DNA of 64,000 nucleotides from an uncultured PS1 clade bacterium (GTDB taxonomy: Bacteria; Pseudomonadota; Alphaproteobacteria; MED-G09): positions 2,394-66,393 of the forward strand of contig CACLNZ010000004.1 in NCBI GenBank assembly GCA_902608415.1, in the 5' to 3' direction. How positions within the stretch are numbered: the first letter of the stretch is position 1; every line of letters starts with the position of its first letter. The notes under the pieces were generated by a model that was not told the origin of the DNA, made no database searches, and saw nothing but the letters and a program-made list of their open reading frames with translations. The translations under genes were made by a program, and so were the position numbers. Below are positions 15,367 through 47,312 of this stretch, piece after piece.

Positions 15367-16305
15367 ATGACAGATAACACTCATTCAAAATTATTAATTC
15401 TTGGTTCTGGACCTGCTGGCTATACTGCAGCTATCTATGCTTCAAGAGCGATGTTAGAGCCAACTCTTTTAACGGGGATTGAACCAGGTGGTCAAATGAC
15501 AATAACTACTGATGTAGAAAATTATCCAGGTTTTGCAGATATTATTCAAGGTCCATGGTTAATGGATCAGATGAAAGAGCAAGCAATAAGTGTTGGAACA
15601 AATATAGTTTTTGATACCATTGTTGATGTCGATTTATCAAATAAGCCTTTTAAATTAAAGTCTGATTCAGAAAAAGAATATACATGTGATGCTTTAATCA
15701 TTGCAACTGGTGCTCAAGCAAACTGGTTAGGGATAGAATCAGAAAATAAATTTAAGGGGTATGGTGTTTCAGCATGTGCAACTTGCGATGGTTTTTTTTA
15801 TAAAGATAAAACAGTTGTTGTGGTTGGAGGAGGAAATACTGCCGCTGAAGAAGCAATTTTTTTAACTAACTTTGCAAGTGAAGTAAAATTAATACATAGA
15901 AGAGACTCATTGCGTGCTGAGAAAATTCTTCAAAAAAGATTAATGGAAAATAAAAAAATTGAAATTATTTGGGATACAGAAATTACAGAGATAGTTGGTG
16001 ATGAAGATCCCTTAAGTGTAAACCAAGTTGTTTTAAAAAATAAGAAAACAAATAGTATAGAGAATCTCAAAGCTGATGGTGTTTTTGTTGCGATTGGACA
16101 TAGTCCTTCCTCATTAATATTTCAAAATCAATTAGATATGAATGACGCGGGTTATATTTTTACTGCAGCTGATTCAACTAAAACAAATATTAGCGGTGTT
16201 TTTGCAGCCGGTGATGTTACTGATGATAAATATAGACAAGCCGTTACCGCTGCAGGTATGGGCTGTATGGCAGCACTTGAAGTAGAAGAATATTTATCTG
16301 AATAA
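15367..16305 (+). CDS. trxB: Thioredoxin-disulfide reductase
   Basis: 'ILGSGPAGYTAAIYA', redox-active 'CATCDG', 'VVGGGNTAAEEA', 'HRRD', 'GVFAAGDV'. Confidence 0.95.
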   Translation: MTDNTHSKLLILGSGPAGYTAAIYASRAMLEPTLLTGIEPGGQMTITTDVENYPGFADIIQGPWLMDQMKEQAISVGTNIVFDTIVDVDLSNKPFKLKSDSEKEYTCDALIIATGAQANWLGIESENKFKGYGVSACATCDGFFYKDKTVVVVGGGNTAAEEAIFLTNFASEVKLIHRRDSLRAEKILQKRLMENKKIEIIWDTEITEIVGDEDPLSVNQVVLKNKKTNSIENLKADGVFVAIGHSPSSLIFQNQLDMNDAGYIFTAADSTKTNISGVFAAGDVTDDKYRQAVTAAGMGCMAALEVEEYLSE

Positions 16306-34226: not shown

Positions 34227-34334
34227 TGCTTATCTTGCCTTTATTGAAAATTTATAGCTAATTATAAACCTTATTAACTAATTATCGCGAATAATGTATA
34301 AAATTGCTAATATAATGCAACAGAGGTTTTAAAA

Positions 34335-35663
34335 ATGGAAGAAAAGACTCTTATACAGAATGGAGTTATCATTGATGGAACTGGTACAAAACCCAAAAAA
34401 GAGTCCATACTTGTTGATAACTGTAGCATTAAAGCAACAGGTAAAGATGCAGATAAACTTGCTGACTCTAATGATGTCATCAAAATAGATGCCTCCGGTA
34501 AAACAATAATGCCAGGTCTTATTGACGCACATATACATGTGACTTTTGATGAACCATCATCAAATGATGAATTATTTTTTCATAGAAGAGAAGCTTTATC
34601 AGCTATTATAGCAGCATATAATGCAAAAAAAGTTCTTTATGCAGGAGTTACTGGTTTTTGTGATCCAGATAGCCTTCATAGTATCGGTGTTGATTTAAGA
34701 GATGCAATCAAAAGTGGTTATGTAGAGGGACCAAGAATGTCTGTTGGCGGAAATGCATTATTAACATCTGTTGGTGGAACAGCTGGAAGATTAATTCCTG
34801 ATGAGGGTTTAAGAGGCTACGCAAAGATTGTTCAAAATAAAGATGAGATTGTAACTGAGGTTAGAAGACAAATTAAAAATGGAGTCGATTGGATTAAAAT
34901 TCATGTTACAGGTTTAATCCCTAATCAAAAAGAAGAAGGTGAAATTTCCGTCTGGTCATTTGAAGAACTTAAGTTAGTTTGCGATTTAGCTCATGATTTA
35001 GGAACACCAGTAGTCGGGCATGTTAGAAATGCAAAAGGCGTTAAAGACTGTATAAAAGCGGGCATGGATATGATTTTACATGCCACTTTTATGGACGAAG
35101 AGGCAATTGACTTAGTTTGCGAGACAAAAACACCAATTGTGCCTACTTTCACATTTCAAGCAAATCTTGCTGATTTTGGCGAAGCAATAGGTGCTTCAGA
35201 AGATTATCGCCAAATCTTTAAAAAAGAAATCGATGATAACGCAGAAATATTTAAAAAAATACATGATGCTGGAGTACCTCTTCTTTGTGGAACAGAAAGT
35301 GGTTTTTCAATTACTCCTTATGGAGAATGGCACTATAGAGAGTTAGAGGTATTTATTAAAGATATTGGCATGACAAATCTAGAGGCGATCACTTGCGCTA
35401 CAAAGAATGCCGCTAAATCAATTAAGATGGAAAATAAAGTCGGAACTATTGAAAAAGGAATGTTAGCAGATATTCTTGTTGTTGATGGTGACCCACTTAA
35501 AGACATTACAGTCTTAGGTGACAAAACAAAATTATCTCACATTTTCTTAAATGGTAAAGAAATAAAAAGAGAAGAAGAAATTAAAGATATTACACCACCT
35601 CAAGGATGGCGATTATCACCCTATTCTGATGGAATTTTAACTCAGGAACTTGCTAAAAAATAA
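34335..35663 (+). CDS. Metal-dependent amidohydrolase
   Basis: 442 aa. 'GKTIMPGLIDAHIHV' metal-binding H-x-H motif, 'KIHVTG', 'GHVR', 'ILHATF', and 'GMLADILVVDGDPL' C-terminal barrel-closing motif. Confidence 0.8.
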   Translation: MEEKTLIQNGVIIDGTGTKPKKESILVDNCSIKATGKDADKLADSNDVIKIDASGKTIMPGLIDAHIHVTFDEPSSNDELFFHRREALSAIIAAYNAKKVLYAGVTGFCDPDSLHSIGVDLRDAIKSGYVEGPRMSVGGNALLTSVGGTAGRLIPDEGLRGYAKIVQNKDEIVTEVRRQIKNGVDWIKIHVTGLIPNQKEEGEISVWSFEELKLVCDLAHDLGTPVVGHVRNAKGVKDCIKAGMDMILHATFMDEEAIDLVCETKTPIVPTFTFQANLADFGEAIGASEDYRQIFKKEIDDNAEIFKKIHDAGVPLLCGTESGFSITPYGEWHYRELEVFIKDIGMTNLEAITCATKNAAKSIKMENKVGTIEKGMLADILVVDGDPLKDITVLGDKTKLSHIFLNGKEIKREEEIKDITPPQGWRLSPYSDGILTQELAKK

Positions 35664-35665
35664 AA

Positions 35666-36871
35666 ATGAAAGAATTTAACTTCACTAAATACGAAGATGC
35701 TATCAAGATCTATCGGGAAAAAAATCTCAAGCAAGCCCTATATGATGAGGGTGAAATTATTATGGATCAGGTTTTAGTTTGTCTGCATGGAGATGATCAT
35801 AGAAAAAGAAGAAAAGTTGAAAATAAAGTTTTTTCTCGTGAAACCTTCAGACTTTATGAAACCGATATTTATCCAGTAACATTAGATCAAACTATTCAAC
35901 CTTTTTTAAAAAAAGGTAAAATGGATCTAGTAGATTTTGGTTTCAGAGTTTTATTAAACCTAACAGCAGATTTTTCTGGTGTAGATAGGCCTGAAAAATC
36001 CCCTGAAGAAACTGAAACACTAATAAAGTTATTAAAAATATTTGCTTCTGGAGCTACTTTAGCACATTCAACTCGGGATAGAGATGAAGTGAAAGAAGAA
36101 ATTAAAGTTGCTCTTAAAGAATTTGAAAGTAAATTTCTTGGTCCTTCAATAAAAAGGCGTGAGGAATTAATTAAAAATTCGAATGAAAATGAATTACCGA
36201 CAGGAGTTCTTATTAATCGCCAAGATATACTTACAGCATTATTGAATAATCAGGACGAATTAAAGTTACCATATGATGTTTTGATGAGAGAAATAGCGTT
36301 TTACTTGCTTGCAGGTGCTCAGACATCTATTCATTCTTTAGTTCATACCTTTCATGAAATTACTAAGTGGGTTGAAAAAAATCCAGATAAGAAAAAAAAT
36401 ATATATGATCCAATATTTGTTCAAAAGGCAGTTCATGAAAGCACAAGACTTCATCCATCAAGCCCAGTTGCTTGGAGAAAACCAACATGTCCGGTTCACC
36501 TCCCAACTAATGAAGAGGCAAAGGAAGGAGATAAGGTTATTATTGATTTATATGCCTGTAATAGGGATGAGGAAATGTTTGGCGAAGATGCTAAAGAATT
36601 CAATCCAAATAGGAAGGCCCCAAGTGGACAAAATGTATATGGTCTATCTTTTGGATTGGGCATGCACTCCTGCATTGGTAGAAATCTTGCGGCAGGTGTG
36701 GTTCCAAAAGAAGATACAGATCCTAATGACCATCATTACGGAACAGTCGCCTTAATTTTAAATAAATTATTTGAGTACAATGCACAACCTGACCCCGACA
36801 ATGCTCCAAAAATGGATGAGAAAACAAAAAGGCCAAATTGGGGATATTATCCGATAATTTTTGATGTTTAG
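35666..36871 (+). CDS. Cytochrome P450, paralog 1
   Basis: 401 aa. EXXR 'HESTRLHP', Cys-ligand loop 'FGLGMHSCIGRNLA', I-helix 'LLAGAQTSIHS'. Starts 3 nt after the amidohydrolase stop. Confidence 0.9.
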   Translation: MKEFNFTKYEDAIKIYREKNLKQALYDEGEIIMDQVLVCLHGDDHRKRRKVENKVFSRETFRLYETDIYPVTLDQTIQPFLKKGKMDLVDFGFRVLLNLTADFSGVDRPEKSPEETETLIKLLKIFASGATLAHSTRDRDEVKEEIKVALKEFESKFLGPSIKRREELIKNSNENELPTGVLINRQDILTALLNNQDELKLPYDVLMREIAFYLLAGAQTSIHSLVHTFHEITKWVEKNPDKKKNIYDPIFVQKAVHESTRLHPSSPVAWRKPTCPVHLPTNEEAKEGDKVIIDLYACNRDEEMFGEDAKEFNPNRKAPSGQNVYGLSFGLGMHSCIGRNLAAGVVPKEDTDPNDHHYGTVALILNKLFEYNAQPDPDNAPKMDEKTKRPNWGYYPIIFDV

Positions 36872-36882
36872 AAGGTTTAAAT

Positions 36883-38091
36883 TTGACCCAATTTAAGATA
36901 TCTGATTACGAAACAATTAAAAATGCAATGGTTAATAGAGATCTTAAGCAAGCCCTTTACGATGAAGGAAAAGTTATTATGGATGGGGTTCTTTTAACTC
37001 TTCATGGAGAAGAGCATCACAAAAGAAGAAAATTAGAGCATAAAGTTTTTCAAAGAGACTATTTCAAATATTACGAGCAGGAACTTTTTCCAAAAACATT
37101 AGATGAAACAATAGAACCATTTATAAAATCAAAAAAAGCAGATTTAATAGACTTTGGTTATAGAATAACAATGAACCTAACCGCTGATTTTGCAGGAATT
37201 GATAGAACACAAAAAACGCCTAGTGAAACCAATAAACTTTTAACTCTTGTAAAAAAATTTAGCGAAGGAGCAACATTAGTACATTCGAAAAGAGATAAAA
37301 GTATTGTAGAAAAAGAAGTTTTAGATGCTTTAGATATTTTTGAAATAGATTTTCTAAAACCTTCTATTAAAAAAAGACTGAAATTAATTTCTGCATATAA
37401 TAATGCCGAAATAGAAAAAGATCAGCTTCCTAGGGATGTACTCACTGTTCTCTTAATGAATGAAGATGATATAAATCTAGATGATGATATTATAAAAAAA
37501 GAAATTGCATTCTATCTTCAGGCTGGTTCACACAGTACAGCTAACTCAATGACGCATGCATTTCATGAAATTTCGAACTGGATTAACAATGACAGACAAA
37601 AGTTTAATAAAATAAAAAATGACCCTATCTTTCTTCAAAAATGTGTTCATGAAAGTATGAGGCTACATCCTGCAAGCCCTGTAGCTTGGAGAAAATCAAC
37701 ATGTCCAGTTAAAATAGAAAAAAATACTCATTTAAAAGAAGATGATCTTCTTGTTATGGATTTGTATACAGCAAATCGTGATGTTGGGATATTTGGAGAA
37801 GACGCCAATTCCTTTAATCCTGATAGAGAGCTAAAATCTCAACAAAATCTATGGGGTCTAACTTTTGGTATAGGTCTTCATATGTGTTTTGGAAGAGATT
37901 TAGATGGCGGTGTTTCTCCAAATCAAGAAACAGACCCATCAAAACATCAGTATGGTGTTGTAACATTATTGATAAAAAAGCTTTTTGAGCATAATGTTCA
38001 AAGGGATCCTAAAAATAAACCAGAAAGAGATATAAAAACAGAAAGGCCTAATTGGGGAAAATACCCTGTAATATTTGGAGAAAAAAAATGA
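36883..38091 (+). CDS. Cytochrome P450, paralog 2
   Basis: 402 aa, TTG start. 'HESMRLHP', 'FGIGLHMCFGRDL', I-helix 'LQAGSHSTANS'. Colinear with paralog 1. Confidence 0.9.
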   Translation: MTQFKISDYETIKNAMVNRDLKQALYDEGKVIMDGVLLTLHGEEHHKRRKLEHKVFQRDYFKYYEQELFPKTLDETIEPFIKSKKADLIDFGYRITMNLTADFAGIDRTQKTPSETNKLLTLVKKFSEGATLVHSKRDKSIVEKEVLDALDIFEIDFLKPSIKKRLKLISAYNNAEIEKDQLPRDVLTVLLMNEDDINLDDDIIKKEIAFYLQAGSHSTANSMTHAFHEISNWINNDRQKFNKIKNDPIFLQKCVHESMRLHPASPVAWRKSTCPVKIEKNTHLKEDDLLVMDLYTANRDVGIFGEDANSFNPDRELKSQQNLWGLTFGIGLHMCFGRDLDGGVSPNQETDPSKHQYGVVTLLIKKLFEHNVQRDPKNKPERDIKTERPNWGKYPVIFGEKK

Positions 38092-38828
38092 AAAATGCAA
38101 TCGTTACCGGGGCAAGCAACGGAATTGGGTTAGAGATTTCTAAAAAACTTAGTGAAAATGATTACCATGTTGGAATGATAGATGTTGATAAAGAAAATCT
38201 ATTTAAAGAAAGTGAAAATATCAACAATAGTGTTGCCATTGAAGGGGATGTAACTAACGAAGACTCGATAAAAAAAGCATTGGATATATTTAATAAAACA
38301 CCTGATTTAATTGTTAATAATGCTGGTATAGTTATTTTTGGTGGACTGGAAGAACAAAGTATTGAAGATTTTAAAAAGAGTGTAGATGTTAGCCTTATAG
38401 GATCTTACTTAGTTTCACGACTAGCAATAACTTCAATGATAAAAAAGAACTCGGGTTGTATTATCAATATGTCATCAATAAATGGTGTGCACCCTGGTCC
38501 GGGTACTGGTGGCTACCCTCCAGCAAAAGCAGGGATTGTTTCATTAACTCAGCAAATGTCTATTGAATGGGGTCCCTATGGGATTAGAACAAACTCAATA
38601 GCGCCAGGTTTTATTGATGCAGGAATGTCTAAACCAATATATGCAGTAAATAAAGTTAGAGAATTAAGGGGTAATGCTGTTCCTATAAAAAAGCTTGGTG
38701 AAGCTGAAGATATAGCTAATGCCGTTCTTTTTCTTGCCTCAGATAATGCATCCTATATCAATGGACATAATCTAGTAGTTGATGGAGGTGTAATTAATAG
38801 TGTTTTAGGTCAGCTACCAAGGGATTGA
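38088..38828 (+). CDS. Short-chain dehydrogenase/reductase (SDR)
   Basis: 'VTGASNGIGLEI', 'NNAG', 'YPPAKAG'. ATG 38088 overlaps the P450 stop (ATGA); the track start at 38052 lies inside the P450 gene. Confidence 0.85.
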   Translation: MKNAIVTGASNGIGLEISKKLSENDYHVGMIDVDKENLFKESENINNSVAIEGDVTNEDSIKKALDIFNKTPDLIVNNAGIVIFGGLEEQSIEDFKKSVDVSLIGSYLVSRLAITSMIKKNSGCIINMSSINGVHPGPGTGGYPPAKAGIVSLTQQMSIEWGPYGIRTNSIAPGFIDAGMSKPIYAVNKVRELRGNAVPIKKLGEAEDIANAVLFLASDNASYINGHNLVVDGGVINSVLGQLPRD

Positions 38829-39508
38829 TGAAAAAAAATTTAATAGTAACTGGTGGAATATTTCATCCTTTTGAAGAAACCTCTAATTCATTATCTAATA
38901 TTCTTTCTGAAATGGATTATGTATCTGAAATAACTACAGATGTAGAAAAAGGATTTAGCAACCTAAATAATTATGACCTTCTAACGATGAATTTTTTAAG
39001 ATGGCGAATGTTGAATCATGAAAAATACATTCCCTACCTTGATGAGTGGCAATTTAGTTTATCAAAAAAAGGTCAAGAACATTTAAAAAAATTTTTAAAA
39101 AATGGAGGTTCAATAATTGCTTTTCATACATCGTCAATTTGCTTTGATGATTGGCCTGATTATAAAAAAGTTATTGGAGGTAAATGGGTTTGGGATAAAA
39201 CCTATCATCCACCTCAAGGAGTAGTTGAAATATCACCTATTAATGGTCATGAAATTTCAGAAAATATAGACCACTTTAAAATTAATGATGAAATTTATCA
39301 TCACTTAGAGCTTGAAAACTCATCAGAACCATTTCTCAAGGGTTTAACAAAAGAAACTAATGAAGAGCACATAATTGGATGGACATATCAATTTGAAAAA
39401 GGGAAAGTTGTATATAACGCTTTAGGTCATGACAGTGAATCATTAGAAAATGAAAACTTTGTAAAAATAATTAAACAATCTATAAATTGGCTCGAGGATA
39501 AGGAATAG
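38828..39508 (+). CDS. ThuA-like (class-I glutamine-amidotransferase-fold) protein
   Basis: 'VTGGIFHPFEE', 'GGSIIAFHTSS', 'DEIYHHLE' and 'ALGHD' match my recollection of ThuA-domain proteins. Its ATG overlaps the SDR stop (TGATG). Confidence 0.6.
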   Translation: MKKNLIVTGGIFHPFEETSNSLSNILSEMDYVSEITTDVEKGFSNLNNYDLLTMNFLRWRMLNHEKYIPYLDEWQFSLSKKGQEHLKKFLKNGGSIIAFHTSSICFDDWPDYKKVIGGKWVWDKTYHPPQGVVEISPINGHEISENIDHFKINDEIYHHLELENSSEPFLKGLTKETNEEHIIGWTYQFEKGKVVYNALGHDSESLENENFVKIIKQSINWLEDKE

Positions 39509-40269
39509 TGGATAATCTAGATAAGAAATCAATACTAGTAACTGGTGGCGCTACTGGACTGGGATTTTCTATGGCCAAAAGATTTTCAGAAAAAGGTGCT
39601 TTTGTAACAATTTGTGGAAGAAGAAAAGAAAAAATAGATGAAGCAATAAGTAATTTAAAAGTTAATACAATCGGAATTGTTGCTGATGTCACTAATGAAG
39701 AAGATAGAGATAGAATTATTAATCAAACTATAGAGCATGGCGGAAAAATTGATGTACTTATTAATAATGCAGGGAACATGTATCGAGGTAATATTGATGA
39801 ACTTGAAGAAAACAAACTAATTGAAATTTTTAACTCAAATGTAATTTCTGGTATGTTGCTTTTAGGTAAAGCTAAACAATATTTAAAGGAAACTGAGGGA
39901 GTAAATATTTTCATTGGCTCTGTTCATAATCGAAGAGCTTTCCCTGGAGCTTCGCCATATGCCGCAACAAAAGGAGCTTTAGAAACTCTTACAAGAGTAT
40001 TGGCTGCTGAGTTAGGAAAAGACAAAATAAGGGTAAATTGTGTGGTGCCTGGGGCGATTTTTACAGAAATTAACCAAAGAGCTGGTTTATTTGATGATGA
40101 TCAAGCAAAAAAACGTCTTGATTCAATGGCAAAAATACATGCATTAGGGGAAATTGGAACTCCAGAAGATATATCGGAAGCAGTTGAGTATTTAATTAAC
40201 GCCCGATGGACAACAGGAGCAATACTTGATGTGGATGGGGGTTTAGGATTGGGCCTTACAGAAGATTGA
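39508..40269 (+). CDS. Short-chain dehydrogenase/reductase (SDR)
   Basis: GTG start overlapping the previous stop. 'VTGGATGLGFSMA', 'NNAG', 'YAATKGA'. Confidence 0.85.
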   Translation: MDNLDKKSILVTGGATGLGFSMAKRFSEKGAFVTICGRRKEKIDEAISNLKVNTIGIVADVTNEEDRDRIINQTIEHGGKIDVLINNAGNMYRGNIDELEENKLIEIFNSNVISGMLLLGKAKQYLKETEGVNIFIGSVHNRRAFPGASPYAATKGALETLTRVLAAELGKDKIRVNCVVPGAIFTEINQRAGLFDDDQAKKRLDSMAKIHALGEIGTPEDISEAVEYLINARWTTGAILDVDGGLGLGLTED

Positions 40270-41061
40270 CTATATTGGAAGACTAGAAATACCTCCATCA
40301 ACTGCAATTGATTGACCAGTTATATAGCTAGCTTTTTCAGAGGATAGAAATGCAACTAAAGCCGCAAGTTCTTCAGCTTGACCAACTCTTTTTGCAGGAA
40401 TATCACTTGCAATAGACTTTATGATATCCTCACGTGAAGAGTTTGAATTCTCAACTTGTGCTTTTATAAGTCCATCAACTCTTTCTGTATGAGTAAAGCC
40501 AGGACATACATTATTAATCAAGATATTATCAGGAGCTACCTGATTAGATAATGTCTTTGCCCATCCATGAATAGACATTCTCACTCCATTGGATAGCATA
40601 AGATTGTCTATAGGTTGTTTTGCTGATACTGAACTTATATTAATTATTCTTCCCCATTTATTTTTTTTCATAAAAGGTAAAACTTTTCTAGTAACTCGAA
40701 CTGCAGATAAGAAAGTTGACTCAAATGTTTTTAACCAATCGTCATCAGAAAGATCATCAAAAAAACCTGCTTTTGGACCACCAGTATTATTAACAAGAAT
40801 ATCAACCGTATTAAATTTCTTTTCTATTTCTTTTATTAGATTTTCTATATCATCTGTGCTGTCTAAATCAGCTTTAACTGCTAGAACTTCTGCGCCTGAT
40901 AAATTTTGAATTTCCTCAGCGGTTTGGTTTATTTTATCTTGATCTCTTGAGCAAATGACTAATTTAACCCCCTCATTAGCAAGTTCTATTGCTGAAGCTT
41001 TACCCAAACCCTGACTTGCAGCTGTAACAAGTGCCAATTTATTTTTAATTCCAAGATCCAT
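40270..41061 (-). CDS. Short-chain dehydrogenase/reductase (SDR)
   Basis: 'VTAASQGLGKASA', 'NNTGG', and 'SNGVRMS' in place of the classical Y-x3-K region. Its stop abuts the convergent SDR stop with zero spacer. Confidence 0.8.
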   Translation of the reverse strand: MDLGIKNKLALVTAASQGLGKASAIELANEGVKLVICSRDQDKINQTAEEIQNLSGAEVLAVKADLDSTDDIENLIKEIEKKFNTVDILVNNTGGPKAGFFDDLSDDDWLKTFESTFLSAVRVTRKVLPFMKKNKWGRIINISSVSAKQPIDNLMLSNGVRMSIHGWAKTLSNQVAPDNILINNVCPGFTHTERVDGLIKAQVENSNSSREDIIKSIASDIPAKRVGQAEELAALVAFLSSEKASYITGQSIAVDGGISSLPI

Positions 41062-41141: not shown

Positions 41142-43499
41142 TTGAAAATGCTAGAAAAAGGTATGGGTCAGTCTGTTAAGAGAAAAGAGGATTTCCGATT
41201 TATTACTGGAAGAGGAAATTATACTGATGATATTAACCTTCCCCATCAATTATATGCTTACTTCTTAAGATCACCAATAGCACATGCTAAACTTAATTCA
41301 GTAAATATTGAGGAAGCTTTAAAATGTGATGGGGTTAAAGCAATTTATTTTGGAAAAGATACTCAAGCTTTTCTTCCGTGTGGTTGGGAAACCCCTACAA
41401 GAGATGGTACTCCCCCTATGGCAGAACCTCCATGGCCTTTATTTGCTCAAGACAAAATAAGGTTTGTAGGTGAGATCATTGCTGTTGTTATAGCTGATAC
41501 AGTTAACCAAGCAAAAGATGCAAGTGAGTTAATTCAGTATGATTATGAAGAGCTTGGAGCGGTAGTTTCGCCTGAAAAATCATTGGAAATAAGTTCCGAT
41601 TTAATATGGGACAACATACCTAATAATCAATGTTTCGATTGGGAAATTGGTGATAAAGAAATGACAGACAAAGCTTTCAATAGTGCTGCATTTACAGCCT
41701 CAATTGAGCTTTTAAACAATAGACTTGTGCCAAATGCCATGGAGCCAAGATCTTATATTGGATCATATGATAAAGGAAAGGACGAGCATACTCTCTACAC
41801 CACTACACAGCTACCTCATATAATTAGAATGTTAGTTTGCGGTGTTTTAGGATTAGAAGAACAAAAAGTAAGAGTTATTTCACCTGATGTTGGAGGTGGT
41901 TTTGGTTCTAAAGCATTTCACTACGCAGAAGAATCTATAGTAACCTGGGCGTCACAAAAGCTAAATAAACCTATCAAATGGACTGCTGAAAGAAGTGAAG
42001 CCTTTATAAGTGACAGACATGGTAGAGATCATATTACTAATGCAGAAGTTGCAATTGATGATAGTGGAAATTTTATGGCAATGCGTGTCAATACTGTTGC
42101 AGCTCTTGGAGGTTATTTATCTGGATCAGGACCAGCTATTCCAACTTTCTTTTATGGACCATTAATTCCTGGTCCATACAAAACCCCTACTTTTTATTGT
42201 AATGTTCGTGGTGTTTTTACTAATACAGTACCTGTAGACGCGTATAGAGGGGCTGGTAGGCCTGAAGCAACATATGTAACTGAACGTTTGGTAGAAGCTG
42301 CAGCAGAGGTAACTGGTATAGATTCAATAGAATTAAGAAAAAGAAACTTTATACAACCAGATCAATTTCCATATAACTCTCCGGGAACACTAACTTATGA
42401 TAGCGGTGATTATGAAGCAACTCTTGATTCAGCATTAAAAAGCATAAATTATGATGATTTTAATAAAAGAAAAGCTGAATCAAAAACTAATGGTAAATTA
42501 AGAGGATTAGGCATTTCTTGCTATATTGAAGCGTGCGGTGTTGCGCCTTCAAAACTTACTTTAGAAGCAGGTGGCAGGGGTGGATATTATGAGTCTTCAA
42601 CTGTTAGAGTTAACCCTACTGGGTCTGTAACTGTCTTCACTGGCTCACATTCACATGGGCAGGGACATGAGACAGTTTTTGCACAAATCGTTCATGAAAA
42701 ACTTGGTGTAGCTTTTGAGTCGATTGATGTAGTTCATGGCGATACAGGTAGAGTGCCTTTTGGTGTTGGGACTGTTGGTTCACGTTCGCTTGCTGTTGGA
42801 GGTCCTGCATTAATGCGATCAATTGATAAAATAATTGAAAAGGGAAAGAAAATAGCAGCTCATCTTTTAGATGCATCAGTTGAAGAAATAGTTTTTAAAG
42901 ATGGAGAATTCTCAGTATCAGAATCAAACAAATTTGTTGCATTTGCTGATGTTGTTGGAGCAGCATATGTTCCTGGTAACTACCCAATAGAAACCCTTGA
43001 ACCTGGTTTAGAAGAGACATCATTTTATGATCCGCCTAATCTTACTTACCCAGCAGGAGCACATATATGTGAAATAGAAATAGACCCTGAAACAGGTCAA
43101 ATTGATATCAAAAATTATTGTGTATCCGATGATTTTGGTATCGTAATGAATCCTATGATAGTCGAGGGGCAAGTACATGGAGGTGTTGCTCAGGGTATTG
43201 GCCAAGCATTATTTGAAAACTGTATCTATGAAGAGAATACAGCACAATTAATTAATGGATCATTTATGGACTATACAATGCCTAGAGCAGATAATGTCCC
43301 ACATATGATAGTAGAAACCGAGGTAACACCTTGCGCTCATGGATTAGGTGTAAAAGGATGTGGTGAAGCGGGGGCAATTGCTGCTCCGCCAGCTGTTATA
43401 CATGCAATATTGGATGCCCTTAAAGAAAAAGGAGTAACTGAATTCGATATGCCTGCGACACCTAATAAAGTCTGGAACGCAATTAATAATAAAAGCTAA
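41142..43499 (+). CDS. Molybdopterin-binding large subunit of the xanthine dehydrogenase / CO dehydrogenase family (form-II CoxL-like)
   Basis: 785 aa. 'GQSVKRKEDFRFITGRGNYTDD', 'GGGFGSK', active-site loop 'AYRGAGRPEA' (form-II type, not the AYxCSFR of bona fide CODH), 'GCGEAG'. Confidence 0.85.
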   Translation: MKMLEKGMGQSVKRKEDFRFITGRGNYTDDINLPHQLYAYFLRSPIAHAKLNSVNIEEALKCDGVKAIYFGKDTQAFLPCGWETPTRDGTPPMAEPPWPLFAQDKIRFVGEIIAVVIADTVNQAKDASELIQYDYEELGAVVSPEKSLEISSDLIWDNIPNNQCFDWEIGDKEMTDKAFNSAAFTASIELLNNRLVPNAMEPRSYIGSYDKGKDEHTLYTTTQLPHIIRMLVCGVLGLEEQKVRVISPDVGGGFGSKAFHYAEESIVTWASQKLNKPIKWTAERSEAFISDRHGRDHITNAEVAIDDSGNFMAMRVNTVAALGGYLSGSGPAIPTFFYGPLIPGPYKTPTFYCNVRGVFTNTVPVDAYRGAGRPEATYVTERLVEAAAEVTGIDSIELRKRNFIQPDQFPYNSPGTLTYDSGDYEATLDSALKSINYDDFNKRKAESKTNGKLRGLGISCYIEACGVAPSKLTLEAGGRGGYYESSTVRVNPTGSVTVFTGSHSHGQGHETVFAQIVHEKLGVAFESIDVVHGDTGRVPFGVGTVGSRSLAVGGPALMRSIDKIIEKGKKIAAHLLDASVEEIVFKDGEFSVSESNKFVAFADVVGAAYVPGNYPIETLEPGLEETSFYDPPNLTYPAGAHICEIEIDPETGQIDIKNYCVSDDFGIVMNPMIVEGQVHGGVAQGIGQALFENCIYEENTAQLINGSFMDYTMPRADNVPHMIVETEVTPCAHGLGVKGCGEAGAIAAPPAVIHAILDALKEKGVTEFDMPATPNKVWNAINNKS

Positions 43500-43939
43500 G
43501 GTTTAAAAACAACAAGAAATACAATAACTATCATTATTAAAGTTGGCACTTCATTGATAATTCTAAAAAACTTTGAAGAAAATTTATTGCTATCTAAGGC
43601 AAAACTGCGAAGACATTGCCCTAAAAAAATATGAAATAATGTCATTAGAAAGACAAAGAAAAGTTTTATAATTAACCATAATTGAAAACCATTAAAATAA
43701 AAAAGCGTTAATCCTGTTATCCATACTAATGCAACAGCAGGATTCATAATTACTCTATAAAGTTTATTTTCCATAATTTTGAATGTGTTGGTTGTATCTT
43801 CATTTTTTTTGATAAGATCATCACTATGATAAACAAATAATCTTGGTAAATATAATAATCCTGCCATCCAAGCGATGACTGAAATTATATGTGTGGCTTC
43901 GAAAAGAGAATAAATCATATAATTATTCCCAACGCGCAT
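43496..43939 (-). CDS. hemJ: Protoporphyrinogen IX oxidase, HemJ type
   Basis: 'THIISVIAWMAGLLYLPRLFVYH' signature; 4-5 TM. An alternative ATG at 43918 would remove the 17-nt overlap with hemF. Confidence 0.8.
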   Translation of the reverse strand: MRVGNNYMIYSLFEATHIISVIAWMAGLLYLPRLFVYHSDDLIKKNEDTTNTFKIMENKLYRVIMNPAVALVWITGLTLFYFNGFQLWLIIKLFFVFLMTLFHIFLGQCLRSFALDSNKFSSKFFRIINEVPTLIMIVIVFLVVFKP

Positions 43940-44735
43940 CTGGAGGCATAGACATTAGAATTGCATCAGTATTACCGCCGGTTTTAATCCCAAATTGCGT
44001 ACCTCTATCCCATAGGAGATTAAATTCGACATATCTTCCCCTTTTTAATAACTGCTTATTCTTCTCTTCCTCTGTCCAATTGTCATCTTTTCTTTTGTTA
44101 ATAATATGAGGGACTATTTTAAAAAAAGATAACCCAACATCTCTAACAAATGAAAAATCAGTTTCCCAATTATCTGTTGTAAGATGATCAAAAAAAATAC
44201 CGCCTACTCCTCTTTCTTCTCCTCTATGTGGTAAGAAGAAATATTCTGCACAATTTTTTTTAAAGTCAGGGTAGTAATTTTTATTATATTTATCACAAGC
44301 ATCTTTAAGAGAATTATGAAAATCCTCTGTGTCATCATTATAAATGTAAGTAGGAGTCATATCTGCACCCCCACCAAACCAACTCTTCCCGGTAACTATA
44401 AAACGTGTATTAAAATGAAATGCAGGCACAAAAGGAGAGTTCATATGTGCAACAATACTTAATCCGCTAGCCCAATATTCTGGTGAGTCCTTCGTTCCTG
44501 AAACATTACTTCGATAATCATCTTTAAATTCTCCACTTACTGTAGAAATATTCACACCAACTTTTTCAAATATGTTACCTTTCATGAGACTAATTTCACC
44601 ACCACCACTTCCAGAATGATTCCATTTCGTTCTTTCAAAACTTGAACCATCTAATGTTTCGAATTCTTTACAGAACTGATCTCGGAGATTCCTAAACCAT
44701 GAACTTGCTAAATCTTTTTTCTCTTCTATTTCCAA
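43923..44735 (-). CDS. hemF: Oxygen-dependent coproporphyrinogen III oxidase
   Basis: 'GGGADMTP', 'HRGEERGVGGIFFD', 'KRGRYVEFNLLWDRGTQFG'. Confidence 0.92.
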   Translation of the reverse strand: MEIEEKKDLASSWFRNLRDQFCKEFETLDGSSFERTKWNHSGSGGGEISLMKGNIFEKVGVNISTVSGEFKDDYRSNVSGTKDSPEYWASGLSIVAHMNSPFVPAFHFNTRFIVTGKSWFGGGADMTPTYIYNDDTEDFHNSLKDACDKYNKNYYPDFKKNCAEYFFLPHRGEERGVGGIFFDHLTTDNWETDFSFVRDVGLSFFKIVPHIINKRKDDNWTEEEKNKQLLKRGRYVEFNLLWDRGTQFGIKTGGNTDAILMSMPPDARWE

Positions 44736-44748
44736 GATAATTCCTCAG

Positions 44749-45786
44749 TTAGCTAAAAATTTTTCTTATAGTCTCAATAAAGTAATGAACATTTTCCTCA
44801 GGTGTATCTTTTAATATTCCGTGACCTAATCCACAGACCCAACCAGCTCTATCTTTTTCACTTATATTTTGTATATGATCAACATATACATCAAAGTCTT
44901 TTTTAAATTCATCATGGTCCTTAACCATACTTTCTTGATTGAAGTTACCTTGAATAAAGCCGTTATTTATCTCTTTAAACCAATGATCCATAGATAATTG
45001 GTGATCTACACCTAAGCCAGCTAGAAAACAATCATCGCTATTAAGGTCATCAACAAAGAATTTATTATCAAAAGGTGATTTTGAATAATATCCAATTTTT
45101 TTCGGGAATTCTTTAATGATTTCCTCATATAAATACTTAGAATAATTATTAAAATTTTTACTATCGGATATACTTTTAGCATCTGTATCAAAAATCATAA
45201 CTAATTCTGCTCCAGCATTTAATTGAAGTGAAATATTATATTTAATTAGAGGAATAATCTTTTCTGAAAGAACTTTAAAAACAAAACTATTAGAGTAATT
45301 GTTTTCATATTGGATACCTTTATTTAAACCAAGACCATATGATAAAACTGTCCATGGACCACCGACAAAACCAATAAGGCTTTTATGGTCAGGCAATAAA
45401 TCTCTTGTTGCCAATAAAGCATTTTCTTGAAAATTCATTTCCTTAATTGCATTTTCTGGAGATTTTAATTCATCATAATTATTTTCGTCAATAAATTGAC
45501 TAAAGATAGGACCAGGATCATATTTTAATGACATACCTAATGCTTCAAGGACAAATAGAATATCGCTAAATAAAATTGCTACATCAAAATCAAAATCATT
45601 TATTGGACCCAGAGCTGTTTCAGCTGCCAAATCAGGGCTTTTACATAATTCTTCAAAGGTATAGCTTTTTTTTAAATTTTGATAATGGGAGTGATATCTT
45701 CCTGCTTGCCTCATAAACCATATAGGGGGTGTCTTTTGCGGGATATGCTTTAAAGCATTACTAAATCTTTCATTACATATTTTCAT
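44749..45786 (-). CDS. hemE: Uroporphyrinogen decarboxylase
   Basis: 'PPIWFMRQAGRY' signature, 'ILFSDIL', 'GFVGGPWT'. Confidence 0.93.
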   Translation of the reverse strand: MKICNERFSNALKHIPQKTPPIWFMRQAGRYHSHYQNLKKSYTFEELCKSPDLAAETALGPINDFDFDVAILFSDILFVLEALGMSLKYDPGPIFSQFIDENNYDELKSPENAIKEMNFQENALLATRDLLPDHKSLIGFVGGPWTVLSYGLGLNKGIQYENNYSNSFVFKVLSEKIIPLIKYNISLQLNAGAELVMIFDTDAKSISDSKNFNNYSKYLYEEIIKEFPKKIGYYSKSPFDNKFFVDDLNSDDCFLAGLGVDHQLSMDHWFKEINNGFIQGNFNQESMVKDHDEFKKDFDVYVDHIQNISEKDRAGWVCGLGHGILKDTPEENVHYFIETIRKIFS

Positions 45787-47312
45787 TTTTTATCGCCAGA
45801 TCTTTTTACATTTTTTAGAGCATCTTCATATGAAAGGAAAACATTTATATTATTTTTATTTATATGCTTTTTAATTGTTTTATGCGTATTTCCTGGTCCA
45901 CAAGAGTGATTAGCATTTATTATTTTAGGATAATTTTTTAAGGCTAATTTAAAAGCTGATCCACTCATCCAATAGAAATGGCTCTTTTTATTTAAATCTT
46001 CAATCACATTAACTGGTTTTAATTCATAGGTAGCAATAGTACGGGCATTTTGTGGATCTTTATGTAATTTGAAATAATTCTTTGGCGTCAGATTATGAGT
46101 CAACTTCACCCATTTTTTATTTTTTGATAAACATTTAATTTTTGGATCCTCTTCCCCTAGGCTATCCGAAGAACCGTTTATCCAATAGCCTTTTTTGGCT
46201 AATTTTTTCCATGTTTTAACTCCACTTGTCCAGACCACATTTGTTGATTCAATATTTTGATCTCTTGGTAAAGCATTTTCTCTACTCACATAAATATTTG
46301 TATTTTTTAGTTTGTTAATTTTTTTTAAATTTTTATTAATTATTTTTCTGTCAAACAATTTGTACTTACTTATATTTGAAGGGAAAAAATTTGCTTCCGG
46401 AATATTTTTCCAATCAGTATTTTGATTTACGACCTCTCTTTTTTCAATTTTCAAACCCTCTTCAGTCTGGCCTTTTATAGTAAGAATTTTTCCAAAGAAT
46501 TTAGACTCAATGCTTACACCAATTTTTTGATGACAGCCTCCTCCATAATTTTGAAGAATCTCTCTCTCTTTTATAACCTGGGAAAATGTTTCAATGTGGT
46601 TAATTTTATTAATTAACTCAATAATATCTTTTCTTTTCGAATTTACCTCTACAGCAATTGCTCCTTGACCAGGAGCGCATGGATTTAAAGATAAAGGAAT
46701 AATCATCCATAACAAATCATCAAGATATGATTGTATTTTACCTGATACATCTTTATTTCCATATGAGATTAATCTATCAATCGCAGCTTTAGCAACAATT
46801 AACCCTTGGCAGTCTCCATTTAATAACTTTCTTAGTCTTGTAGGAATATTGCCTCTTACATCCTCAAAAGTTATCCTTTTTGGATTAAAAGGAAGCAAAG
46901 ATTCTAAGAAATTCGAAAAATTGTAAACTCTTCTAGGCGAGGAAGTAAGAATTCTTAATTCTTTATTATTGTAGTTTTCAAATATGTCTTTTTTTAGGAA
47001 TAAAATATCTCTTGAATCAGCGCGCTCAAGCATAGAAACTATTAATGTATCCTTTTGATCTTCAATTGGGAGATCTTTAAGAGAATGAACTGCTAAATCA
47101 GCCTCATTATTTAAAAGTGATTCCCTAATATCATTAGTGAATACACCAATATTAGATAACTTACTTAATGATGTTAACTGATCAATATCCCCCTCTGTTT
47201 CCTTTTTAATAAAAGATATAGAAATATTTTTATCAGCTTGCTTTAAGGCTTTAGCAACAATCTCAGCCTGAATAACAGCTAAGTCACTTTTTCTAGAGAT
47301 AATTTTAATCAT
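45783..47312 (-). CDS. hemC: Porphobilinogen deaminase with a C-terminal extension of about 200 aa (candidate fused uroporphyrinogen-III synthase)
   Basis: The N-terminal ~300 aa is colinear with HemC ('SRKSDLAVIQA', 'AVHSLKDLP', 'RGNIPTRLRKL', 'APGQGAIAVE', cofactor Cys in 'GGGCHQKIG'). The remaining ~200 aa has a weak HemD-like pattern ('HFYWMSGSAF', 'SCGPGNTHKTI'). Confidence 0.8.
   Translation of the reverse strand: MIKIISRKSDLAVIQAEIVAKALKQADKNISISFIKKETEGDIDQLTSLSKLSNIGVFTNDIRESLLNNEADLAVHSLKDLPIEDQKDTLIVSMLERADSRDILFLKKDIFENYNNKELRILTSSPRRVYNFSNFLESLLPFNPKRITFEDVRGNIPTRLRKLLNGDCQGLIVAKAAIDRLISYGNKDVSGKIQSYLDDLLWMIIPLSLNPCAPGQGAIAVEVNSKRKDIIELINKINHIETFSQVIKEREILQNYGGGCHQKIGVSIESKFFGKILTIKGQTEEGLKIEKREVVNQNTDWKNIPEANFFPSNISKYKLFDRKIINKNLKKINKLKNTNIYVSRENALPRDQNIESTNVVWTSGVKTWKKLAKKGYWINGSSDSLGEEDPKIKCLSKNKKWVKLTHNLTPKNYFKLHKDPQNARTIATYELKPVNVIEDLNKKSHFYWMSGSAFKLALKNYPKIINANHSCGPGNTHKTIKKHINKNNINVFLSYEDALKNVKRSGDKK

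Follow-up and report, generated by a model that had tools for sequence, protein, structure and literature searches.

What does a compact group of genes for an amidohydrolase, two cytochromes P450, several short-chain dehydrogenases/reductases (SDRs) and a ThuA-like protein accomplish in a streamlined planktonic bacterium? The question is raised by a 64,000-nucleotide stretch of DNA (contig CACLNZ010000004.1, positions 2,394 to 66,393; referred to here as the window) from an uncultured alphaproteobacterium of the PS1/OCS116 clade, in which these genes lie side by side. The host has a genome of about 1.3 Mb; its assembly (G000) comprises 1.12 Mb in 51 contigs, is 83% complete and has a GC content of about 32%. 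The answer proposed here, to which we assign a probability of about 0.5, is that the genes form a conserved catabolic operon, whose products oxidise a small organic compound step by step and cleave its amide bond, the compound being one widely available in aquatic environments.

Six genes on the plus strand, between 34335 and 40269, constitute the core of the set. In order, they encode AH, a metal-dependent amidohydrolase (34335..35663; Pfam Amidohydro_1, 117 bits); P450a, a cytochrome P450 (35666..36871; Pfam p450, 67.0 bits against a cut-off of 22.8); its paralogue P450b (36883..38091; 60.1 bits against the same cut-off); SDR1, a classical SDR (38088..38828; adh_short_C2, 183 bits); the ThuA-like protein (38828..39508, in an open reading frame (ORF) running from 38825; PF06283, 78.6 bits against a cut-off of 33.4); and SDR2, a classical SDR with a GTG start (39508..40269; adh_short_C2, 162 bits). 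The ORF list and the Pfam matches agree on this order. AH and P450a are separated by 2 nt and P450a and P450b by 11 nt, while the later junctions overlap: the SDR1 ATG at 38088 overlaps the P450b stop codon (ATGA, 38088-38091), TGATG is found at 38826-38830, and the SDR2 GTG overlaps the ThuA stop codon (TAGTG, 39506-39510), all three being read directly in the sequence. The longest ORF of SDR1 opens at a TTG at 38052, an unlikely start because in this frame the Pfam SDR domain is first matched at residue 14. On the minus strand, a seventh gene encodes SDR3, a convergent atypical SDR (40270..41061; adh_short_C2, 175 bits), which abuts the block with zero spacer, the stop codons of SDR2 and SDR3 adjoining one another. 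The layout is as given in a preliminary description of this DNA, which also proposed that the six genes form a single transcription and translation unit; this is supported by the gene packing and by the same gene order in distant lineages, described below.

The sequence around the start of AH is consistent with such a unit. A TATAAT element resembling a -10 box (34311..34316, plus strand) lies about 20 nt 5' of the AH start, and 3' of it stands AGAGG (34322-34326, plus strand). Five of the six TATAAT columns are invariant in an alignment of the spacer between a motA-like gene and AH from 10-11 PS1-order genomes, and although the remainder of the spacer diverges, the TATAAT/AGAGG block is kept in each of the order's three genera. 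The two elements are predicted as the probable promoter and ribosome-binding site of the operon. In a consensus scan, promoter- and terminator-like sites inside the block were no commoner than in shuffled sequence, which, with the conserved TATAAT/AGAGG block 5' of AH, would fit an operon beginning at AH. The same 108-nt spacer also contains the octamer CTAATTAT twice (34258-34265 and 34278-34285), just 5' of a conserved GCGAAT and of TATAAT; the pair is conserved within the genus only and could be a candidate operator.

Distant relatives of the block were sought in two stages: a scan for the P450 family in a single genome of each species, and then tblastn searches using every protein of the window. 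The order AH-P450a-P450b-SDR1-ThuA-SDR2 recurs in about 20 or more loci at 45-60% identity (29-41% for the ThuA-like proteins). Carriers are Steroidobacteraceae, Woeseiaceae, several Pseudomonadales (including one complete Azotimanducaceae chromosome), Burkholderiales of the Comamonadaceae/Rhodoferax/Polaromonas group, Sphingomonadales, Devosia, Rhodospirillales and metagenome-assembled genomes (MAGs) assigned to 'Deltaproteobacteria'. A search of plasmid records located the full gene set in the cultured Novosphingobium sp. THN1 as well, at about 199-215 kb of its conjugative megaplasmid pTHN (NZ_CP028348.1). The flanking genes are unrelated between carrier lineages, and a chance coming together of the genes, named in the preliminary description as what would refute its reading, is not borne out by a block that recurs among unrelated flanks far outside the PS1 lineage. 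A reduced variant, P450a-SDR1-Amidohydro_2 only, occurs in marine Gammaproteobacteria (L064, L065, L067, L068, L070, L073, L078), where it is preceded by genes for two luciferase-like monooxygenases and a methyltransferase.

The PS1 order is sampled here by 25 species, which fall into 3 genera. All eight of its high-quality genomes carry the P450 pair, and the operon occupies about 0.5% of the streamlined 1.3-Mb genome. The neighbourhood from mnmA to hemE (about 20 kb) is collinear within the order down to about 60% protein identity, and because this applies to the whole neighbourhood, synteny within the order is no proof of functional linkage. One gene departs from the general level of divergence: P450a (compared over 35701-36900) is 96-99% identical at the nucleotide level in another species of the same genus (L040, G010:C15), against about 75% for the genes on either side. 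A recent recombination or sweep limited to P450a would account for this, as would a chimeric MAG assembly.

The block is accompanied by further genes, which were identified by clustering all ORFs of about 60 distant loci and annotating the clusters with Pfam. SDR3 orthologues (42-50% identity) adjoin the block in at least 12 distant loci, and an Amidohydro_2 gene, whose product is closest to ACMSD (3e-38), is present in 24-32 of the approximately 60. A third linked gene lies at 41142..43499 on the plus strand of the window and encodes a CoxL-like large subunit of a molybdenum hydroxylase, recognised by Pfam and NCBIfam matches and by an AYRGAGR loop. Its orthologues (50-54% identity) are found directly upstream of AH in four Pseudomonadales loci (L069, L072, L080, L083), divergent at L109, and together with CoxS, CoxM and CoxG on pTHN (L120), while the CoxL paralogue within the host genome is only 39% identical to it. 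As judged from this recurrence, the CoxL-like gene belongs to the conserved set and is taken to be functionally linked to the cluster, and the unit extends beyond the interval of the preliminary description to include the CoxL-like gene (41142-43499) and the Amidohydro_2 gene.

The AYRGAGR of the CoxL-like protein, at residue 367, is the form-II loop; the AYXCSFR loop of form I carbon monoxide dehydrogenase is absent and the match to TIGR02416 reaches 612 bits against a cut-off of 991. No CoxM or CoxS gene is adjacent to it in the window; the host has a CoxG-CoxS-CoxM set elsewhere, on a contig of 2 kb (C50, 97-1817). The CoxL genes of the Pseudomonadales operons are likewise without adjacent CoxS and CoxM. 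Directly beyond the P450/CoxL block, throughout the order, lie hemJ, hemF, hemE and hemC (43496-47312, minus strand), possibly a coincidence of collinearity.

The PS1 orthologue of the Amidohydro_2 protein (about 50% identity, E about 1e-107) is encoded at a second locus (L124), which spans G004:C3:161000-179000 in the sibling genome G004 and is divided in the host over two contig ends, one on C2 (about 100.5-104.9 kb) and one on C15 (about 20.6-25.9 kb). Besides Amidohydro_2, this locus contains genes for an AH paralogue of 32% identity, a Rieske oxygenase, an ABM monooxygenase, an enoyl-CoA hydratase, an SDR, a KstD-like FAD protein, an NmrA-like protein, a canonical P450 and a SnoaL-fold protein. 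In other lineages, no co-occurrence of these PS1 second-locus genes with the block was found. Other recurrent partners of the block in the distant loci are an OYE-type flavin reductase, MarR regulators and MFS transporters, with HAAT-type ABC transporters in Burkholderiales and some Alphaproteobacteria and a TonB-dependent receptor in Steroidobacteraceae; the HAAT binding protein gave generic matches only in a search of solved structures. Among the conserved neighbour families of the approximately 60 loci, no polyketide synthase, non-ribosomal peptide synthetase, terpene synthase or cyclodipeptide synthase was found, nor was a scaffold-forming core enzyme found in the region of the window. A catabolic role is considered the most likely because the extended set contains no biosynthetic core enzyme.

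P450a and P450b are 52-53% identical to one another. P450a has the Cys loop FGLGMHSCIG, the EXXR motif ESTR and the I-helix sequence AGAQTS, the corresponding sequences in P450b being FGIGLHMCFG, ESMR and AGSHST. Cys loop and EXXR are invariant in an alignment of 12 sequences, and from these motifs both proteins appear able to bind haem. The I-helix acid-alcohol pair (A/G)Gx(D/E)T(T/S), typical of P450s that act as monooxygenases, is lacking in both: Thr/Ser is kept and the acid is lost. Among 83 members of the family, the acid position is occupied by Q, F or H in the P450a clade and by H in the P450b type, never by Asp or Glu, whereas the two other P450s of the host, used as outgroup, are canonical at this position (GGYETT and AGNETT). 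A tree of the 83 members places P450a in a clade of its own, apart from the sequences of P450b type, so that the duplication must be older than the spread of the cluster.

When the family profile was compared with solved structures, only chains of CypX/CYP134A1 scored below 1e-12 (4.7e-16 and 1.1e-15), a remote similarity of 45-62 bits. The best NCBIfam match of both P450s is the cyclodipeptide-synthase-associated TIGR04538, at 66 and 74 bits against a cut-off of 500, and no cyclodipeptide synthase is encoded in the window or in the conserved neighbour families. The similarity to CypX and TIGR04538 is a lead, and falls short of membership in CYP134, for which the CYP nomenclature rule asks more than 40% identity. 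CypX (pulcherriminic acid synthase, a cyclo-L-Leu-L-Leu oxidase; 3nc3, 7ow9) resembles P450a and P450b in its intact Cys loop, its length of about 400 amino acids, the absence of a fused reductase and the deviation of its I-helix oxygen-activation residues, for which it is itself regarded as atypical (PMC7731078). It differs in possessing Pro at the alcohol position and in being encoded beside a cyclodipeptide synthase in a biosynthetic pair, while P450a and P450b retain Thr/Ser, have lost the acid, occur as two paralogues and stand in a catabolic context.

The preliminary description reported no ferredoxin or ferredoxin reductase in or beside the cluster. This holds for the cluster and does not hold for the organism as a whole, as ferredoxins and reductases are encoded by G004, which shares 97% protein identity with the host across the cluster. 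The sole flavoprotein reductase-like ORF of the window (15367-16305), a Pyr_redox_2 protein considered as a ferredoxin reductase, was rejected as such, being the thioredoxin reductase TrxB (TIGR01292, 415 bits against a cut-off of 343). PF00111 is matched in the host assembly only by NuoG and a CoxS-like protein, and a 7Fe-type ferredoxin is encoded on host contig C10. Small 2Fe-2S ferredoxins, on the other hand, are present in every more complete relative. In G004, a ferredoxin of this type (106 amino acids) is encoded beside a 405-amino-acid ferredoxin-NAD+ reductase that combines Pyr_redox_2 with Reductase_C and resembles the oxygenase-coupled enzymes AndAa and HcaD, and a second 106-amino-acid ferredoxin beside a thioredoxin reductase-like flavoprotein. 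These ferredoxin and reductase genes are absent from the host assembly together with their neighbours ahcY and tsaE, and the coxE-like neighbour of one of the ferredoxins is cut off at the end of a host contig. Their absence is accordingly attributed to an assembly gap, since ahcY and tsaE are absent too and the coxE-like gene is truncated.

Class I redox partners are expected to be available to the organism, and transfer of electrons from them to the P450s is predicted. A ferredoxin and a reductase shared in trans are the expected design because the genome contains about 15 Rieske alpha-subunit paralogues. In a MAG of Woeseiaceae (L110), an adrenodoxin-type ferredoxin, 44% identical to one of the PS1 ferredoxins, is the first gene of the operon. 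A ferredoxin-motif scan of the high-GC loci yielded mostly out-of-frame noise, with real matches only in L110 and in a Streptomyces locus (L121). The known class I P450 catabolic operons, such as P450cam (camDCAB) and those of the cyclic-amine enzymes PipA and MorA, also combine a soluble P450 with a dehydrogenase that then oxidises the alcohol, and a 2Fe-2S ferredoxin and an FAD reductase would be expected in the present system too. The present system differs in three respects: its redox partners are encoded outside the operon, its P450s are paralogues in tandem that have lost the I-helix acid, and they are accompanied by a ThuA-like protein, by two enzymes of the amidohydrolase superfamily and by a CoxL-type molybdenum enzyme.

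The host assembly (1.1 Mb) contains 4 P450s, 2 Baeyer-Villiger/FMO-type flavoproteins and about 15-17 Rieske alpha-subunit-like loci. The Rieske- and oxygenase-like loci are spread over contigs C1, C2, C6, C10, C12, C13, C15, C23, C26 and C34, making this streamlined PS1 genome unusually rich in oxygenases.

AH belongs to the carboxypeptidase/prolidase-like subgroup of COG1228. Its best solved relative is 2qs8, an Xaa-Pro dipeptidase (5e-50), followed by the Arg carboxypeptidase 3mtw and by hydrolases of the ochratoxin and molinate type; these relatives are carboxypeptidase-like hydrolases of N-acyl amino acids or dipeptides. The protein lies below every NCBIfam equivalog cut-off, including that of the Xaa-Pro dipeptidase NF051886 (238.9 bits against 500). 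The metal ligands of the binuclear subtype to which this group belongs are HxH, a carbamylated Lys, two His and an Asp. In AH, HxH, K188, H229 and H249 are conserved in 26 orthologues, and with characterised members of COG1228 (the Arg carboxypeptidase Cc2672, the Sgx9260 prolidases, ochratoxinase and molinate hydrolase) AH shares the TIM barrel, HxH, the position of the carbamylated Lys and two His. It differs from them in an apparent Glu for the beta-8 Asp and in being embedded in an oxidative operon.

The ThuA-like protein gave no match in a sequence search of solved structures. Its AlphaFold2 model (pLDDT 96.5) was matched by Foldseek to the folds of 4e5v, 4jqs and 1t0b (TM-scores 0.69-0.78; 4e5v, TM-score 0.78, E 2e-12), with 13-18% identity to these solved ThuA-like proteins. 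The fold is that of the class-I glutamine amidotransferases, from which the Cys-nucleophile elbow is missing, and a role as amidase of the glutamine-amidotransferase type was rejected on this ground. Invariant in 22 orthologues are H13, H100, D107, H127, D154, E155 and H201, with C105 nearly so (at least 90%), a pattern that suggests an active or metal-binding site. The protein is probably an enzyme or a dehydrogenase partner. ThuA works with the oxidoreductase ThuB and is known only as its partner (PMC8121099), and the position of the ThuA-like gene between two translationally coupled SDR genes would be compatible with a partnership of this kind. The ThuAB system of rhizobia and Agrobacterium, which forms 3-keto-disaccharides, likewise has a ThuA-family gene beside that of an NAD(P)-dependent dehydrogenase; here the candidate partner is an SDR, with no Gfo/Idh/MocA protein and no sugar transporter or glycoside genes in the block.

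SDR1 (TGASNGIG, NAG, YPPAK) and SDR2 (TGGATGLG, NAG, YAATK) have the motifs of classical SDRs. SDR3 possesses TAASQGLG in place of TGxxxGxG, has no YxxxK and belongs to the PRK08339/BacG-like subgroup, its best solved relatives being 1o5i, 2z1n, 6jh7 and BacG (3u49). From these features, it may be an ene-reductase or a ketoreductase-type SDR with a non-canonical catalytic set.

From these assignments we infer a substrate class and an order of steps for the proposed catabolic operon. The substrate would most likely carry an amide or lactam bond together with a carboxylate; conjugates resembling N-acyl amino acids would be of this kind, as would N-heterocycles or cyclic amides. P450a and P450b would each hydroxylate a C-H position, receiving electrons through a 2Fe-2S ferredoxin and an NADH-ferredoxin reductase encoded in trans and shared with many Rieske oxygenases. 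The new alcohols would be oxidised to carbonyls by SDR1 and SDR2, probably with the ThuA-like protein, as ThuB acts with ThuA, and by SDR3. The CoxL-type molybdenum enzyme could then convert an aldehyde to an acid or hydroxylate a heterocycle, and the ACMSD-like Amidohydro_2 protein, supplied in PS1 by the second locus, could decarboxylate the product or open a ring. AH would finally cleave the amide bond to release an amino acid or amine.

Several observations weigh against this scheme. No sampled member of the P450 family has the I-helix acid, and the sole clear solved relative, CypX, is a multi-step cyclodipeptide oxidase with an atypical I-helix; for these two reasons simple hydroxylation is not assured. 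A ferredoxin within the operon is found in only one of the approximately 60 distant loci (L110). In AH, the expected beta-8 Asp, placed by motif position, is an invariant Glu321 (GTESG/GSESG) in the 26 orthologues. The solved ThuA-like structures matched carry no assigned function, and the solved-structure matches of SDR1, SDR2 and SDR3 are all generic.

The function of the genes had been left open in the preliminary description, between catabolism of a terpenoid, sterol, lipid or amide compound and biosynthesis. The present evidence clearly favours catabolism, and within it an amide or N-heterocyclic substrate over a lipid or sterol. Degradation of a terpenoid, sterol or lipid would have the P450s hydroxylate an alicyclic or aliphatic skeleton for oxidation by the SDRs, with lactonase or hydratase roles, in place of amidase roles, for the members of the amidohydrolase superfamily. 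In its favour is the second locus of PS1, where the ACMSD-like gene lies with those of a KstD-like protein, a Rieske oxygenase, an enoyl-CoA hydratase, a SnoaL-fold protein and a canonical P450. Amidohydro_2 members include lactonases and hydratases, and Steroidobacteraceae, Comamonadaceae and Novosphingobium are known as degraders of alicyclic compounds. The second-locus genes, however, do not travel with the block elsewhere, the relatives of AH are peptide and amide hydrolases, and the association with CoxL fits heterocycles or aldehydes better. Acyl-CoA ligase, acyl-CoA dehydrogenase and thiolase are all missing among the conserved neighbours of the block, and the lack of accompanying beta-oxidation genes leaves a lipid or sterol substrate with less support; we consider this explanation unlikely. 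A pathway for cyclic dipeptides or lactams, in which CypX-like P450s would dehydrogenate or aromatise the ring, CoxL hydroxylate the N-heteroaromatic product and AH open the ring or cleave the amide, is attractive but in our view likewise unlikely. It would account for the CypX chains as the sole solved matches to the family profile below 1e-12, for TIGR04538 as the best NCBIfam match of both P450s, for the lack of normal I-helix oxygen-activation residues in the family as in CypX, and for the annotation of the best solved AH relative as an Xaa-Pro dipeptidase; relatives of CoxL, moreover, act on N-heteroaromatics (quinoline, 6-hydroxypseudooxynicotine). The CypX match is remote, however (45-62 bits), that to TIGR04538 lies far below its cut-off (66-74 bits against 500), a literature search gave no catabolic pathway for diketopiperazines with which to compare, and the SDR, ThuA-like and ACMSD-like genes are not specific pointers to such compounds. 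Equally doubtful is the broader prospect of a route for cyclic dipeptides, cyclic amides or N-heterocyclic dissolved organic matter that would be the first of its kind and core to PS1 and to many freshwater and marine Proteobacteria. In such a route the P450s, working with the ThuA-like/SDR module, AH and CoxL, would perform multi-step ring oxidation in the manner of CypX in place of simple hydroxylation.

A biosynthetic or tailoring cluster for a secondary metabolite, cofactor or signal is very improbable, although the nearest characterised P450 relatives (CypX and the cyclodipeptide-synthase-associated family) are biosynthetic and the relatives of SDR3 include BacG of bacilysin biosynthesis. 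A scaffold-forming enzyme is missing from the approximately 60 loci, uptake systems and MarR regulators accompany the block, and the latter is carried by a conjugative megaplasmid as well as being a core trait of 1.3-Mb streamlined planktonic genomes. Chance juxtaposition of genes with unrelated functions would be compatible with the collinearity of the whole 20-kb neighbourhood within the PS1 order, but is effectively refuted by the same order and coupling in distant classes with unrelated flanks. Among known pathways, those of the pic type for picolinate combine a CoxLMS-type hydroxylase with an Amidohydro_2 decarboxylase, a pairing that the one found here may resemble. Pyridine-carboxylate pathways use flavin or Rieske monooxygenases, not P450s, and differ further from the present set, in which no ring-cleavage dioxygenase is conserved. 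The known route for homarine (N-methylpicolinate), a compound that would fit CoxL and a decarboxylase, was rejected as an explanation: the hom operon is flavin-based, has no P450 and is unrelated to this cluster (PMC13236597). Searches of the literature on PS1/OCS116 with P450, on ThuA with P450 and on diketopiperazine degradation returned no matching pathway, many of the 'ThuA' matches being other words, and a paper on molinate and azepane and one on microcystin and strain THN1 contained nothing on this cluster. The preliminary description of the combination as uncharacterised is in agreement with this search, which gave no pathway of this composition.

Bacterial catabolic operons built around a P450, with redox partners supplied in trans, are a known kind of system; the novelty lies in the enzyme combination, in a P450 family lacking the I-helix acid, and in how broadly the set is conserved. 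What appeared as a curiosity of a single genome is now a defined unit of six core genes and three linked genes (SDR3, the ACMSD-like Amidohydro_2 and CoxL). Candidate redox partners have been identified, and the plasmid-borne copy in the cultured Novosphingobium sp. THN1 makes the function testable. A sizeable P450 family in which all sampled members are without the I-helix acid is also of enzymological interest. To our knowledge, only a minority of the routes by which planktonic bacteria use dissolved organic matter have been worked out. None of the high-quality PS1-order genomes lacks the P450 pair, and the block is found again in many Proteobacteria that are abundant in fresh and marine waters; we conclude that its substrate is probably a common one in such environments.

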